From the NCBI RefSeq assembly GCF_056712565.1, contig NZ_CM160072.1: DNA of 64,000 bases; one strand, 5' to 3'. The notes under the pieces were generated by a model that searched no databases, was not told the origin of the DNA, and saw only the letters and a program-made list of their open reading frames with translations. Positions 4,408 through 8,943 of the stretch are shown piece after piece (the stretch's first letter is position 1; the number at the start of each line of letters is the position of its first letter). Both the position numbers and the translations under genes were made by a program.

Positions 4408-5445
4408 TTACCTCGCGAGAGTCACTGCGGAGGGAGAAGATTGCTCAAAACCGCGTTCAAGGATTTCCAGATTCGTAAGAACTTCAGATTCCTTGACGTA
4501 ATTTGGCGCACCGTTGGTGATGGTTTGATACAACGCATCATAAACGCGCCCATAATCGCCCATCTCTGGCTTCATCTCTTCTCTTACCGTCACGCCCTCG
4601 TCATTGACATACTCCAGCACACCGACCGAATCATCCGCTGCGAATCCTGGTTCGCCCGGCATAATATTAGCCTTCAGGCTGGTTTCCTGCTGGTCGATAC
4701 CGTATTTAATAAACGAACCTTTCTTACCGTGAACGATAAATTTCGGATAATCGATTTTCACCAGATGGCTGGTTTTGACGATGGCTTTTAGATCGCCATA
4801 AAACAGCTGCGCTTCAAAGGTGTCGTCCGGATTGGCTTTATTACGCAGGCTGCGGATGTCATAAGCGACGTGATCCGGGCGACCGAACAGAGAAATAATC
4901 TGGTCCATCGTATGCACACCAAGGCCATAGAACGCGCCATCCTGCGGCAGCCCCGGTTTGGTTTCTGCCACCGGGCGGTAATAGTCAAAATGGCTTTCCA
5001 CTTCGACAATCTCTCCCAGCTTGCCGCTTTCAATCGCTTTTTTCGCTGTCAGGAAGCAGGAATCAAAGCGACGATTCTGATACGGCGTAACGATCAGCCC
5101 TTTGCTTTTCGCCAGTGCAAACAGCTCTTTCGCCTGCGCAATTGTCGGAGTGAACGGTTTTTCGACCAGCACATTTTTCCCGGCTTCCAGCGCGCGCTTC
5201 GCGTACTCGAAGTGGCTGTCCGCGTGGGTGCAGACGACAACCAGCTTAACATCGGGATCGTTTAGCACTTCGTCGAGATCGCTGGTGAAATGGATATGGG
5301 AATAAATGGGGGCCTGTTCTTCCGGCTTCGCATGGCGGCGAAAAATATGCGCGACATGCCAGCTATCCTTGCGGTTAAGTACATACGGCAGATGGTAACG
5401 GGTGGTGCTTTTGCCGAAGCCAATAAAGGCGCAGTTAATGACCAT
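4408..5445 (-). CDS. yhhX: Gfo/Idh/MocA-family NAD(P)-dependent oxidoreductase
   Basis: 345 aa; N-terminal Rossmann GFGKS motif; matches YhhX. Confidence 0.9.
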   Translation of the reverse strand: MVINCAFIGFGKSTTRYHLPYVLNRKDSWHVAHIFRRHAKPEEQAPIYSHIHFTSDLDEVLNDPDVKLVVVCTHADSHFEYAKRALEAGKNVLVEKPFTPTIAQAKELFALAKSKGLIVTPYQNRRFDSCFLTAKKAIESGKLGEIVEVESHFDYYRPVAETKPGLPQDGAFYGLGVHTMDQIISLFGRPDHVAYDIRSLRNKANPDDTFEAQLFYGDLKAIVKTSHLVKIDYPKFIVHGKKGSFIKYGIDQQETSLKANIMPGEPGFAADDSVGVLEYVNDEGVTVREEMKPEMGDYGRVYDALYQTITNGAPNYVKESEVLTNLEILERGFEQSSPSAVTLAR

Positions 5446-5566
5446 GATTTCGTCCTTTTTAAGGTGGTTATTTACACCTTAGCGCAAAGCGGACGTGGTT
5501 CCTACTGGAGTGCGCATAACGAACACAAGCACTTCCCGAGGATAAATTGAGAACGAAAGGTCAAAA

Positions 5567-5657
5567 AAAAAGCCAGCACCCGGCTGGCTAAGTAATACTG
5601 GAAGCAATGTGAGCAATGTCGTGCTTTCAGGTTCTCCGCGAGGGTCTTCCTGATCGC
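5567..5657 (-). ncRNA. ryhB: RyhB small RNA (iron-sparing, Fur-repressed, Hfq-dependent)
   Basis: Minus-strand sequence gcgatcaggaagaccctcgcggagaacctgaaagcacgacattgctcacattgcttccagtattacttagccagccgggtgctggctttt matches RyhB, including its terminator hairpin and U-tail; lies in the yhhX-yhhY intergenic region as in K-12. Confidence 0.92.
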
Positions 5658-5659
5658 GA

Positions 5660-5680
5660 GACAATAATAATCATTCTCAT
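5660..5680 (-). promoter_or_regulatory. Fur box overlapping the ryhB promoter
   Basis: Sequence aataataatcattctc matches the Fur consensus (GATAATGATAATCATTATC) at about 13 of 15 positions, immediately upstream of the ryhB 5' end. Confidence 0.6.
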
Positions 5681-5778
5681 TCGCACTTGTCCAACACTTT
5701 TTGCAAAAAAATGCATTTGACTCGCATTTGAAAGTCAATGATGTTGAAAGGGACATTTACCCCAAAGAGGACAAAGGA

Positions 5779-6267
5779 ATGAGTGAGATAGTAATACGCC
5801 ACGCAGAAACACGCGATCACGAAGCCATCAGGCAGATTCACGCCCAGCCGGAGGTGTATTACAACACGCTACAGGTGCCTCATCCTTCAGAACAAATGTG
5901 GCTGGAACGACTCACCGCTCGCCCTGGCATCAAGCAGTTAGTCGCCTGTATTGATGGAATCGTCGTAGGCCATCTCACCATTGACGTGCAACAACGCCCA
6001 CGCCGCAGTCATGTTGCCGATTTTGGTATCTGTGTCGACTCTCGCTGGAAGAACCGCGGCGTCGCCAGCGCCCTGATGCGCGAAATGATTGATATGTGCG
6101 ACAACTGGTTGCGGGTAGATCGCATCGAGCTAACGGTGTTCGTCGCTAACGCGCCAGCAATTAAGGTCTATAAAAAATTCGGCTTTGAGATTGAAGGGAC
6201 TGGCAAAAAGTACGCATTACGTAATGGTGAATATGTCGATGCGTATTATATGGCGCGGGTGAAGTAA
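5779..6267 (+). CDS. yhhY: GNAT-family N-acetyltransferase
   Basis: Internal ATG gives 162 aa beginning MSEIVIRHAETRDHE; GNAT motifs (RGVASALM); matches YhhY. The ORF track start at 5701 is an upstream extension. Confidence 0.85.
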   Translation: MSEIVIRHAETRDHEAIRQIHAQPEVYYNTLQVPHPSEQMWLERLTARPGIKQLVACIDGIVVGHLTIDVQQRPRRSHVADFGICVDSRWKNRGVASALMREMIDMCDNWLRVDRIELTVFVANAPAIKVYKKFGFEIEGTGKKYALRNGEYVDAYYMARVK

Positions 6268-6274
6268 GATAGTG

Positions 6275-6299
6275 CCCTTTTTCTGAGATGGAAAAAGGG
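6275..6299 (+). terminator. Hairpin ccctttttc/gaaaaaggg downstream of yhhY
   Basis: 9-bp perfect inverted repeat 8 nt after the yhhY stop; the following U-tract is weak. Confidence 0.4.
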
Positions 6300-6502
6300 T
6301 GTCATTCAAAATCGGCATACCTTCCTTTAATGTATTTATTTTCCCAATAAATATATGAGATTTACCTCATAATTACTTCCTAAAGTGTAATATTTTATTT
6401 TTTAATATATACGCCTACAATTTCCTGGAGTAAATAAATAACAATTAACAAGCATAATATTGCCATTGATAAAATAGCATGCCATAAAAGGACTTTTCAG
6501 GG

Positions 6503-7681
6503 ATGAGTAATATTGTTTATCTGACAGTAACGGGAGAACAACAAGGAAGCATCTCCGCAGGTTGTGGGACTACTGAATCTATAGGTAATCGCTGGCAGAG
6601 CGGTCATGAGGATGAAATATTTACATTCTCACTCTTAAATAGTATTACTAATACGGGGCTTGGTTCACAGTTCCATGGTATAACATTTTGTAAATTAATT
6701 GATAAAAGCACTCCATTATTTATTAATTCCATTAACAATAATGAACAATTATTTATGGAATTTGACTTCTATCGAATAAATAGATTTGGTAGATGGGAAA
6801 AGTATTATTATATACAACTAAGAGGCGCTTTTTTATCGGCTATTCATCACCAGATCTTTGAAAACCAACTGGATACAGAAACAATAACTGTTAGTTATGA
6901 ATTTATCCTCTGCCAACATCTTATCACTAACACCGAGTTCAGCTATTTGGCACTCCCTGAAAATTATAACCGCTTGTTTTTACCAAATTCAAAAAACAAA
7001 ACAAATAATGGTTTAAAAACGTTAAACAGCGAAGCTGTTGGCAGGCTACTTGCTGCTGGTGGCGTATACAATGGGAACATTGAAGGATTCAGAGATACTG
7101 CGGAAAAACTGGGTGGAGATGCAATCAAAGGCTATGATCAAATACTAAATGAAAAAACAGCGGGCATAGCGATAGCAACAGCATCTATTCTTTTAACAAA
7201 GCGTTCTAATGTTGATACATATACAGAAATAAATAGTTACTTAGGCAAACTTAGAGGCCAACAAAAACTTCTTGATAGTATAGACATAATAGAAATAATA
7301 TAAATTAAGAGACCTTCAAAAGACTTAGCTAACTTACGAAAGGAGTTTAATAAAAATGTAAGAAAAAATTTTCTTATCAAACTTGCAAAAACCTCCGAAG
7401 CATCTGGAAGATTCAACGCCGAAGACCTTTTAAGAATGAGAAAGGGCAATGTTCCTCTAAATTATAATGTACACCATAAACTATCTCTAGATGATGGTGG
7501 TACTAATGATTTGGAAAATTTAGTATTAATCGAAAACGAACCATATCATAAGGTTTTTACTAACATGCAATCACGAATAGCTAAGGGAATATTAGTGGGT
7601 GAAAGCAAAATCACTCCCTGGGCCATTCCATCTGGCTCAATTTATCCTCCCATGAAAAATATTATGGAACCCACAAAATGA
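6503..7681 (+). pseudogene. yhhZ: yhhZ-like Hcp-domain polymorphic toxin with C-terminal HNH nuclease domain, interrupted by an in-frame TAA at 7301-7303
   Basis: ORFs 6503-7303 and 7436-7681 share one reading frame; codons after the TAA continue open (IKRPSKDLANLRKEF...) into an HNH motif (HHKLSLDDGGTNDLENLVLIENEPYHKVF). 266+1+125 codons equals the 392-aa K-12 YhhZ length as I recall it. Confidence 0.65.
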
Positions 7682-8172
7682 TGACTAAAACCCAAATAAA
7701 TAAATTAAAAAAAATGATGAATGATTTAGACTATCCATTTGAAGCACCGCTCAAGGAATCATTTATTGAAAGTATAATCCAAATAAAATTTAATTCTAAC
7801 TCAACTAATTGCCTGGAGAAGTTATGTAATGAAGTTAGTATTCTCTTTAATAATCAACCTGATTATCTTACTTTTTTAAGAGCAATGGATGGATTCGAAG
7901 TTAATGGATTACGATTATTTAGCCTCTCGATTCCAGAACCTTCAGTTAAAAACCTTTTTGCCGTAAATGAATTTTATAGAGATAATGATGATTTCATAAA
8001 TCCTGACTTACAAGAACGGTTAGTGATCGGGAATGATAGCATTTCAATATTTACTTATGACATTAAAAGTAACTTTTTTGAAATTAGAGATAATATTGGC
8101 ACAGAAAATATATTCAGTTCGTTTAGTGATTTCTCTTCATTCTTAAACGAAATCATGGACAGTTGTTCATAA
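7678..8172 (+). CDS. yrhA: Putative immunity protein for the YhhZ nuclease; intact here
   Basis: 164-aa ORF overlapping the yhhZ stop by 4 bp (ATGA), typical toxin-immunity coupling; AT-rich. In K-12 I recall yrhA being split by IS1; no IS1 sequence is present here. Confidence 0.65.
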   Translation: MMTKTQINKLKKMMNDLDYPFEAPLKESFIESIIQIKFNSNSTNCLEKLCNEVSILFNNQPDYLTFLRAMDGFEVNGLRLFSLSIPEPSVKNLFAVNEFYRDNDDFINPDLQERLVIGNDSISIFTYDIKSNFFEIRDNIGTENIFSSFSDFSSFLNEIMDSCS

Positions 8173-8621
8173 TAATAAAAAGGTAACCAAAATCATTGTA
8201 AACCATGCCATCTTTTTAGAGTTTACCAGCAGTAAATTTCTTGATCGAAATTTATCAATACAAGCTATAGAAAAACTTACAACGGAACTACACTCCTTAA
8301 GTGAGATGGACCGAAGACATGTAGTCGCTATTTAAACTGAAATAGCTAATGGCGATGATGATCTTAGTGACATGTTGATTTGGTTAGAATTTTACCCGAA
8401 TCATAAGATTCTGATATCTTAAATGAGCAAATCCGGTTCGACGTTCTGGAAAATAAATCACAAAATATTAGCAGATACTTATTTTGTGACTATACCTTAT
8501 CCGATGAACTCTTTTCAAAACCAGCATTTAATAATATCTTTGACGAAGATGAACGCGTCTTTGCTCAATGTATAACGCAGGAATAATAATATAACGCTAA
8601 ACAATAATATTTATTATAATT

Positions 8622-8906
8622 ATGATTACTTATCACGACGCATTCGCGAAAGCGAACAATTACCTTGATGATGCAAATCTCCCGGTCGTCATTACTCTAC
8701 ATGGACGCTTTAGCCAGGGCTGGTATTTCTGTTTCGAAGCACGAGAATTTCTCGAAACTGGAGATGAGGCCGCGCGCTTAGCTGGTAACGCACCTTTTAT
8801 TGTTGATAAAGGCAGTGGTGAAATTCATTCTCTGGGAACGGCAAAGCCACTGGAAGAATATCTACAGGATTATGAAATAAAAAAGGCTACCTTCGGCTTG
8901 CCCTGA
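8622..8906 (+). CDS. yrhB: Small heat-stable chaperone-like protein
   Basis: 94-aa ORF; translation matches YrhB. Confidence 0.8.
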   Translation: MITYHDAFAKANNYLDDANLPVVITLHGRFSQGWYFCFEAREFLETGDEAARLAGNAPFIVDKGSGEIHSLGTAKPLEEYLQDYEIKKATFGLP

Positions 8907-8943
8907 CAATACGGCCCTCTTCCCACTAAGAGGGCCGCTAACC

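Follow-up and report, generated by a model that had tools for sequence, protein, structure and literature searches.

Organization of the yhhZ locus

The window (the whole stretch of DNA analyzed, 64,000 nucleotides) carries an AT-rich islet composed of yhhZ, yrhA, yrhD and yrhB. Within it, yhhZ spans positions 6503-7681, corresponding to 392 codons, and consists of an open reading frame of 266 aa (6503-7303) that ends in a stop, after which the frame is open again. The features of the locus are the following:

6250-8750, no strand: AT-rich islet yhhZ-yrhA-yrhD-yrhB, with 29-35% GC against approximately 51% in the flanks, lying between yhhY and ggt, both core genes
6503-7303, plus strand: truncated yhhZ frame of 266 aa, with Hcp/TssD at residues 1-147 and a linker or pre-toxin region at residues 148-266
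7301-7303, plus strand: premature ochre codon TAA, from TAC (Tyr267), by C to A at 7303
7304-7681, plus strand: stranded in-frame remainder of 125 codons, predicted from motif, profile and fold to encode a colicin/pyocin-type HNH DNase
7436-7681, plus strand: mechanical ORF of 81 aa, beginning at the first ATG after the stop in the ORF scan and covering the HNH core only
7678-8172, plus strand: yrhA, 164 aa, predicted immunity protein of SUKH/SMI1-KNR4 fold, its start overlapping the yhhZ stop (ATGA)
8267-8422, plus strand: yrhD pseudogene, with the start codon lost and an internal TAA, by comparison with the intact 55989 copy
8622-8906, plus strand: yrhB, orphan immunity gene of the Imm35 polymorphic-toxin family (Pfam PF15567)

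The islet is flanked by yhhY and ggt, and no type VI secretion system (T6SS) gene is annotated in the matching type-strain stretch across all 64 kb of the window. Orphan Hcp, away from any T6SS cluster, is thus an accurate description of yhhZ, in keeping with the original prediction of an orphan type VI effector locus. The yrhB product matches PF15567 over the full length of the model (positions 1-85 of 85, E = 6.5e-22), NCBIfam has no model for YrhB, and the gene stands here without a partner toxin. The yrhD gene, a pseudogene in B2 strains, carries that flag in the records of ATCC 11775, A26, 729, CUVET and ECAMP047. Moreover, approximately 1600 of the 5426 complete E. coli genomes lack part or all of the islet, the yhhZ-yrhA pair itself being absent from approximately 30% of complete genomes, and in strain YZ22PE165 an IS1 occupies the place of yhhZ-yrhA. 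Scanning positions 6200-9000 for promoters and terminators gave no excess over shuffled sequence (12 vs. 12.7 and 2 vs. 1.5, respectively). The Rfam scan returned RyhB only, which lies outside the feature, at 5564-5628 on the minus strand.

Six SNPs and one single-base deletion distinguish the window, across its full length, from the RefSeq type-strain record. Among the genes flanking the islet, ggt has a one-base deletion at approximately position 9301, which shifts its frame from codon 459 of 577 onward, and yhhY has a D123A change at position 6146. Over 5800-9600, each of the best-matching complete genomes differs somewhere from the window, and neither of these two differences was found among them.

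Translation of the window places the premature TAA at codon 267 (7301-7303), beyond which the same frame stays open for 125 codons up to a TGA at 7679-7681. Added together, 266 + 1 + 125 codons give 392, which is the length of intact YhhZ in K-12, A26 and 55989, and sequence comparison with these three genes found the window copy to be collinear, with zero indels. The K-12 reference copy was that of the K-12-derived NEB5-alpha, in which the gene is annotated as tssD/yhhZ, as it is also in A26 (B2) and in EAEC 55989. The sole inactivating difference is a C to A change at 7303, which converts TAC (Tyr267) into TAA. The original prediction had described two ORFs lying in one frame and split only by this TAA, their codons adding up to the full-length K-12 protein, and had read them as an Hcp-HNH polymorphic toxin cut by a point nonsense mutation; the alignment to yhhZ of K-12 and other E. 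coli, with TAC in the intact copies, agrees with it on every one of these points.

In an alignment of 19 sequences, Tyr267 belongs to an I-x-Y-x-K-R stretch that is conserved in the toxin module. As homologues with unrelated N-termini share sequence from approximately residue 248 onward, the stop falls some 20 residues into this module, ahead of the entire catalytic fold. Judging from the reading frame, translation should end after 266 residues, leaving Hcp plus linker and no nuclease.

Carrier, nuclease and immunity components

We then focused on the identity of the protein domains encoded on either side of the stop. The Hcp domain of the truncated product is recognized by TIGR03344 over residues 1-147, with 121.4 bits against a cutoff of 58.9, and by Pfam T6SS_HCP over residues 18-139 (E = 1.9e-11). 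In addition, solved Hcp structures (3he1, 6a2v and 5mxn) match the yhhZ product at E-values from 5.6e-13 to 7e-11. By the curated threshold, the predicted 266-aa product belongs to the Hcp/TssD family, and the expectation that the carrier domain had been kept is well supported by all three lines of evidence.

The 125-aa toxin part was less readily classified. Pfam matches to it are weak (PF01844 HNH, E = 0.013; PF21431 Col-Pyo_DNase, E = 1.3), and NCBIfam has no model for it. Its catalytic motif, HH324-325 ... N335 ... N339 ... H349 ... N354, is encoded at nucleotides 7472-7564, and residues H324, H325, N335, N339, H349, T353 and N354 (H57, H58, N68, N72, H82, T86 and N87 in the domain numbering of the 19-sequence alignment) do not vary among 19 homologues with identities as low as 45%. 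When a profile of this alignment was searched against the PDB, it reached the DNase domains of colicins E7 and E2 and of pyocins S2 and AP41 (E = 7e-4 to 3e-3), with the match spanning approximately 65 positions and including the helical region before the motif. Moreover, the AlphaFold2 model of the DNase part (pLDDT 80.5) was used in a Foldseek search, in which the top 37 hits were all DNases of pyocins S2, AP41 or S8 or of colicins E2, E7 or E9, most with a probability of 0.99-1.00 (lowest 0.97), E-values down to 2.4e-4 and a TM-score of approximately 0.4. The HNH identity of the predicted domain, weak in Pfam, is therefore confirmed by the combination of profile and fold searches. The HNH/colicin-DNase motif that had been recognized past the stop is borne out by the reach of the profile to ColE7, pyocin S2 and AP41 and by Foldseek; an HMM search of 7304-7681, proposed as a check, succeeded only in part, since Pfam gives HNH at no better than E = 0.013 and it is the homologue-built profile that arrives at the colicin and pyocin enzymes. 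In the published classification of His-Me finger nucleases, YhhZ is the type of HNH group 32, while an older paper described YhhZ as an 'evolved Hcp' whose HNH is 'degenerate'.

YhhZ shares with the DNases of colicins E7 and E9 and pyocins S2 and AP41 its predicted fold and the catalytic HH...N...H arrangement, but sequence identity is just 16-28%, with a TM-score of approximately 0.4. The last metal ligand of ColE7, H573, is apparently replaced in YhhZ homologues by an invariant T-N, as read from the alignment. The two groups also differ in delivery, which for YhhZ would rely on an Hcp carrier and for colicins on receptor and translocation domains, and in the immunity protein, which in its model has a SUKH fold for YhhZ and is of the four-helix Im7/Im9 type for colicins.

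The downstream gene, yrhA, is uninterrupted in the window, and its ATG overlaps the yhhZ TGA as ATGA, as the original prediction had stated. The same prediction described yrhA of K-12 as split by an IS1, and such an element (IS1E) does cut the gene there. YrhA had further been called immunity-like, and a fold search with its model, which displays the SUKH alpha/beta fold, points in the same direction. SUKH proteins are reportedly a common immunity family for nuclease toxins. However, YrhA differs from SUKH (SMI1/KNR4) immunity proteins such as YobK from B. subtilis in that no SUKH or SMI1_KNR4 sequence model in Pfam matches it, no relevant Pfam hit being found at E ≤ 10. The YrhA family is defined solely as NCBIfam NF038335 ('YrhA family'), and some UniRef entries label YrhA homologues as SMI1/KNR4. 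A YrhA-family profile searched against PDB sequences returned chance antibody hits only, and our literature search on yrhA as an immunity gene found nothing relevant.

The ribosome-binding potential of yrhA on its own is weak (-3.3 kcal/mol). Its translation probably depended on the ATGA coupling, which would now be broken 375 nt upstream. Such a loss of coupling may lower yrhA expression, and the intact gene need not be fully functional.

The closest described system is Hcp-ET1/ETI1. According to reviews and a preprint, Hcp-ET1 (Ma et al. 2017, Virulence 8:1189), from STEC004, O104:H4 C227-11 and 55989, is an HNH DNase that degrades target-cell DNA, is delivered by T6SS2 and is neutralized by ETI1, the product of the adjacent downstream gene. 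In strain 55989, the same yhhY-ggt locus holds yrhA and an uninterrupted yhhZ of 392 aa, and within E. coli our search with the toxin domain yielded YhhZ-type sequences only. Based on these two observations, and on what secondary sources relate of Hcp-ET1, we infer that the intact orthologues of the window genes very probably correspond to the Hcp-ET1/ETI1 DNase-immunity pair. Shared with the window are the Hcp domain, the HNH DNase and an immunity gene directly downstream, which here is yrhA, with its ATGA overlap and SUKH-fold model. The pair in 55989 also occupies the same orphan chromosomal site, in a stretch with 52 differences from the window over 1851 nt. In the window, however, codon 267 is a stop, so that a single polypeptide no longer contains both carrier and toxin; the continuous Hcp-toxin frame that characterizes Hcp-ET proteins is found in K-12, A26, CUVET20-PYO2, ECAMP047 and 55989. 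The window gene is therefore a pseudogene of the Hcp-ET1 family rather than a working member.

The YhhZ-YrhA pair of K-12 (b3442 and the yrhA pseudogene) is orthologous to that of the window and collinear with it, has the same flanking genes at the locus and differs at 33 of the 1179 nt of yhhZ. Decay has taken the opposite course in the two, as in K-12 the toxin frame is intact and the IS1 lies in yrhA, whereas the window combines a dead toxin with an intact yrhA.

Distribution of the TAA allele

To place the mutation within the species, the TAA-centered 62-mer was compared with its TAC version: among the 5426 complete E. coli genomes, the former is found exactly in 126 and the latter in 3327. 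Listed TAA carriers are UTI89, S88, IHE3034, APEC O1, UM146, NU14, ATCC 11775, APEC O18, PMV-1, IMT5155 and a strain named ST95-32, which we take to be members of the ST95 complex; a literature search found no paper connecting ATCC 11775 with ST95. Over the 1851 nt that surround the finding, the window matches the RefSeq chromosome of the type strain, ATCC 11775 / DSM 30083, at every position, and the PGAP annotation of that chromosome marks yhhZ as a pseudogene ("internal stop"). Moreover, at least 60 genomes match the window at each of the 1670 nt of yhhZ-yrhA. One synonymous site is the only difference in these two genes among the carrier genomes sampled; the intactness of yrhA among carriers refers to the 60 of the 126 genomes compared in full. 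At least 1000 contigs of mixed origin carry a gene call with exactly this 266-aa product. The pseudogene state is thus not peculiar to this genome, and it is already annotated in RefSeq.

Codon 267 is TAC in K-12, 55989, A26, CUVET20-PYO2 and ECAMP047. The last three are close relatives (B2), with 5-7 differences from the window over 1851 nt, and carry an unflagged 392-aa gene. As TAC is found exactly in 3327 genomes and is present in the closest B2 alleles, it is the ancestral codon, and the TAA is, on the sequences compared, a derived and inherited allele of one clone, in which it is a fixed marker. In the stranded HNH-coding part, the only substitutions relative to the closest intact alleles are changes specific to the latter, and D119N, which restores the family consensus, is the only carrier-specific amino-acid polymorphism in yrhA. 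Product names ('tube protein TssD' vs. 'Hcp1 family effector') were also considered as a proxy for the pseudogene, and discarded because K-12 derivatives with the same sequence bear both.

Probable loss of the toxin activity and persistence of yrhA

Taken together, these results make us confident that yhhZ has here become a pseudogene only recently, by inactivation of an 'evolved Hcp' effector gene of the Hcp-ET1 family, and that recency mainly accounts for the persistence of yrhA. No observation speaks against the pseudogene reading. In its intact form, a single polypeptide would join an Hcp tube-subunit domain, a linker of approximately 100 residues and a colicin/pyocin-type HNH (His-Me finger) DNase, which, as published for Hcp-ET1, would be fired into neighboring bacteria by the T6SS, while the producer would be protected by the co-translated downstream YrhA (ETI1), of SUKH fold. 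A single C to A transversion in the ancestor of one B2 clone, which includes the E. coli type strain, changed Tyr267 from TAC to the ochre codon TAA, and the lineage would thereby have lost the killing activity of the YhhZ toxin. The event appears to be young because the stranded HNH part is unchanged and the sampled carriers are identical but for one synonymous site. The genes yrhA and yrhB, the latter an orphan of the Imm35 family, would then have stayed intact mainly because there has been too little time for decay, and yrhA may be translated less well now that ribosomes would halt 375 nt before its coupled start. After a recent event, yrhA would be expected to be intact, and its intactness therefore provides no evidence of selection for immunity. 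Accordingly, of the 'disarmed toxin, retained immunity gene' proposed originally, the description holds, as the toxin is dead and yrhA intact, but it does not speak for selective retention, since the HNH remnant is equally unchanged.

It is possible, though in our view unlikely, that the nonsense mutation is real and that yrhA (and yrhB) have been selected as defensive orphan immunity against E. coli with an intact YhhZ. Exposure to such strains is plausible, given the 3327 complete genomes with the exact TAC sequence, and the carrier lineage would be a T6SS-proficient competitor in the gut. Indeed, according to the secondary literature, UTI89, itself a TAA carrier, has a further Hcp-ET toxin gene within a T6SS cluster, which suggests that the lineage is not devoid of T6SS. 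Furthermore, a partnerless Imm35 gene lies in the same islet, and polymorphic-toxin loci are known to contain orphan immunity genes. Nevertheless, carriers are essentially identical over this region, and the dead part of the toxin has been preserved as well as yrhA. Immunity is also readily lost elsewhere, by the IS1 in K-12, by deletion of the pair and, overall, in the roughly 30% of genomes that lack it, and the weak ribosome-binding site of yrhA suggests reduced expression once coupling is gone.

Going one step further, the clone-wide loss of the DNase, combined with the maintenance of yrhA and yrhB, could represent an adaptive 'disarm but stay immune' state under selection in this extra-intestinal pathogenic lineage, with the truncated Hcp-plus-linker perhaps re-used as a T6SS tube subunit or cargo carrier; we regard this as improbable.

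We consider it very improbable that the locus still works, either as a split toxin started at ATG 7436 or as a leaky one through readthrough of the TAA, with yrhA kept under selection as its antidote. The 125 downstream codons are indeed undamaged and in frame, the 81-aa ORF holds the full HH..N..H motif, and yrhA is intact; yet an undamaged downstream part is equally expected from recency alone. At ATG 7436, moreover, Shine-Dalgarno-like pairing is very weak (-1.4 kcal/mol), close to zero, and the 81-aa product would be missing the three N-terminal helices (domain residues 5-46) that form the first third of the modeled DNase fold and that align with the ColE7 DNase, as well as the Hcp carrier needed for delivery. 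This ORF is therefore unlikely to rescue function. It is probably not a gene, and other annotation pipelines name it merely 'hypothetical protein'. As for readthrough, no recoding signal is evident near the TAA, and in E. coli TAA is the stop codon at which termination is most efficient.

Finally, even though single-base differences absent from the best-matching complete genomes lie nearby (the 1-bp deletion in ggt and D123A in yhhY), a sequencing or assembly error hiding an intact gene can practically be dismissed, because the TAA is not private to the window but shared with 126 independently sequenced complete genomes, the type-strain record and at least 1000 contigs.

Overall, the finding is an ordinary one, i.e., a young, clone-fixed nonsense pseudogene of a characterized effector family, already flagged in RefSeq. 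It has little importance beyond bookkeeping, opens no long-standing question and would not surprise a specialist. Still, it means that widely studied pathogenic E. coli (the type strain, UTI89, S88, IHE3034 and APEC O1) carry a one-nucleotide knockout of an Hcp-ET1-type toxin, revertible in principle, and interbacterial-killing experiments with carrier strains should not expect the YhhZ toxin to act. In addition, the C/A difference at 7303 provides a simple lineage marker. Moreover, with the IS1 in yrhA of K-12, the IS1-associated loss of the pair and the TAA described here, one polymorphic-toxin islet has decayed by several independent routes.

The nonsense yhhZ allele and its genomic background

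Apart from six SNPs (window positions 6146, 21650, 24969, 32981, 44288 and 47439) and a single deletion in ggt, window 1-64000 is the reverse complement of positions 243896-307895 of NZ_CP033092.2, the record of the E. coli type strain ATCC 11775. The window thus comes either from a strain very closely related to the type strain or from a different assembly of it. The yhhZ allele carrying the TAA codon was also found in the 4.7-Mb genomes of the laboratory strains EV36, KMS2001 and KMS2005 (rows H77-H81 and H120-H124 of the genome match listings), in which a 3.8-kb stretch matches that of the window at 99.9%, as closely as the corresponding stretch of the type strain does. As EV36 is a K-12 x K1 hybrid, its region containing the TAA allele presumably derives from the K1 donor.

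With respect to the encoded protein, the linker that joins the Hcp domain of YhhZ to its DNase domain contains a hydrophobic stretch, TAGIAIATASILLTK (residues ~200-237, window 7100-7215), and alignment of homologues showed that it is kept in the Hcp-linked homologues of other enterobacteria.

Genes surrounding yhhZ-yrhA

The neighbouring features considered here, with their window coordinates, are the following:

5564-5628, minus strand: RyhB small RNA (Rfam RF00057, 83 bits)
8267-8422, plus strand: yrhD pseudogene, with the start codon ATG changed to ATA and an internal TAA
8622-8906, plus strand: yrhB, encoding a polymorphic-toxin immunity protein that matches Pfam Imm35 over the full length (E=6.5e-22)
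8944-10676, minus strand: ggt, with a 1-bp deletion at ~9301 relative to the ATCC 11775 record

RyhB lies in its usual location, the interval between yhhX and yhhY. On the plus strand, the N-acetyltransferase gene yhhY carries a private SNP at 6146 (GAT to GCT, resulting in D123A), which is present neither in the type-strain record nor in the best-matching genomes; in the B2 strains A26 and ECAMP047, by contrast, yhhY is interrupted by an internal stop.

Downstream, the internal TAA of yrhD occupies a position encoding Leu in the enteroaggregative strain 55989, and the pseudogene is also found in other B2 strains. Moreover, yrhB is an orphan immunity gene within the same AT-rich islet as yhhZ-yrhA, and no cognate toxin for it was found nearby.

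In ggt, the deletion converts CGACGACAG of the ATCC 11775 record into CGAC-ACAG. The resulting frameshift begins at codon 459 of 577 and should abolish gamma-glutamyltransferase. Since none of the best-matching complete genomes has this deletion, it is either private to this genome or an artefact of assembly.

Genomes lacking the yhhZ-yrhA pair

The pair is missing in approximately 1600 of 5426 complete genomes. In strain YZ22PE165 (NZ_CP139130.1; positions 5093-5790 of the extracted stretch L006), an IS1 element lies exactly where yhhZ-yrhA would be expected, while yrhD, yrhB and the flanks around it are retained. This looks like an IS1-associated deletion that removed the toxin and immunity genes together.
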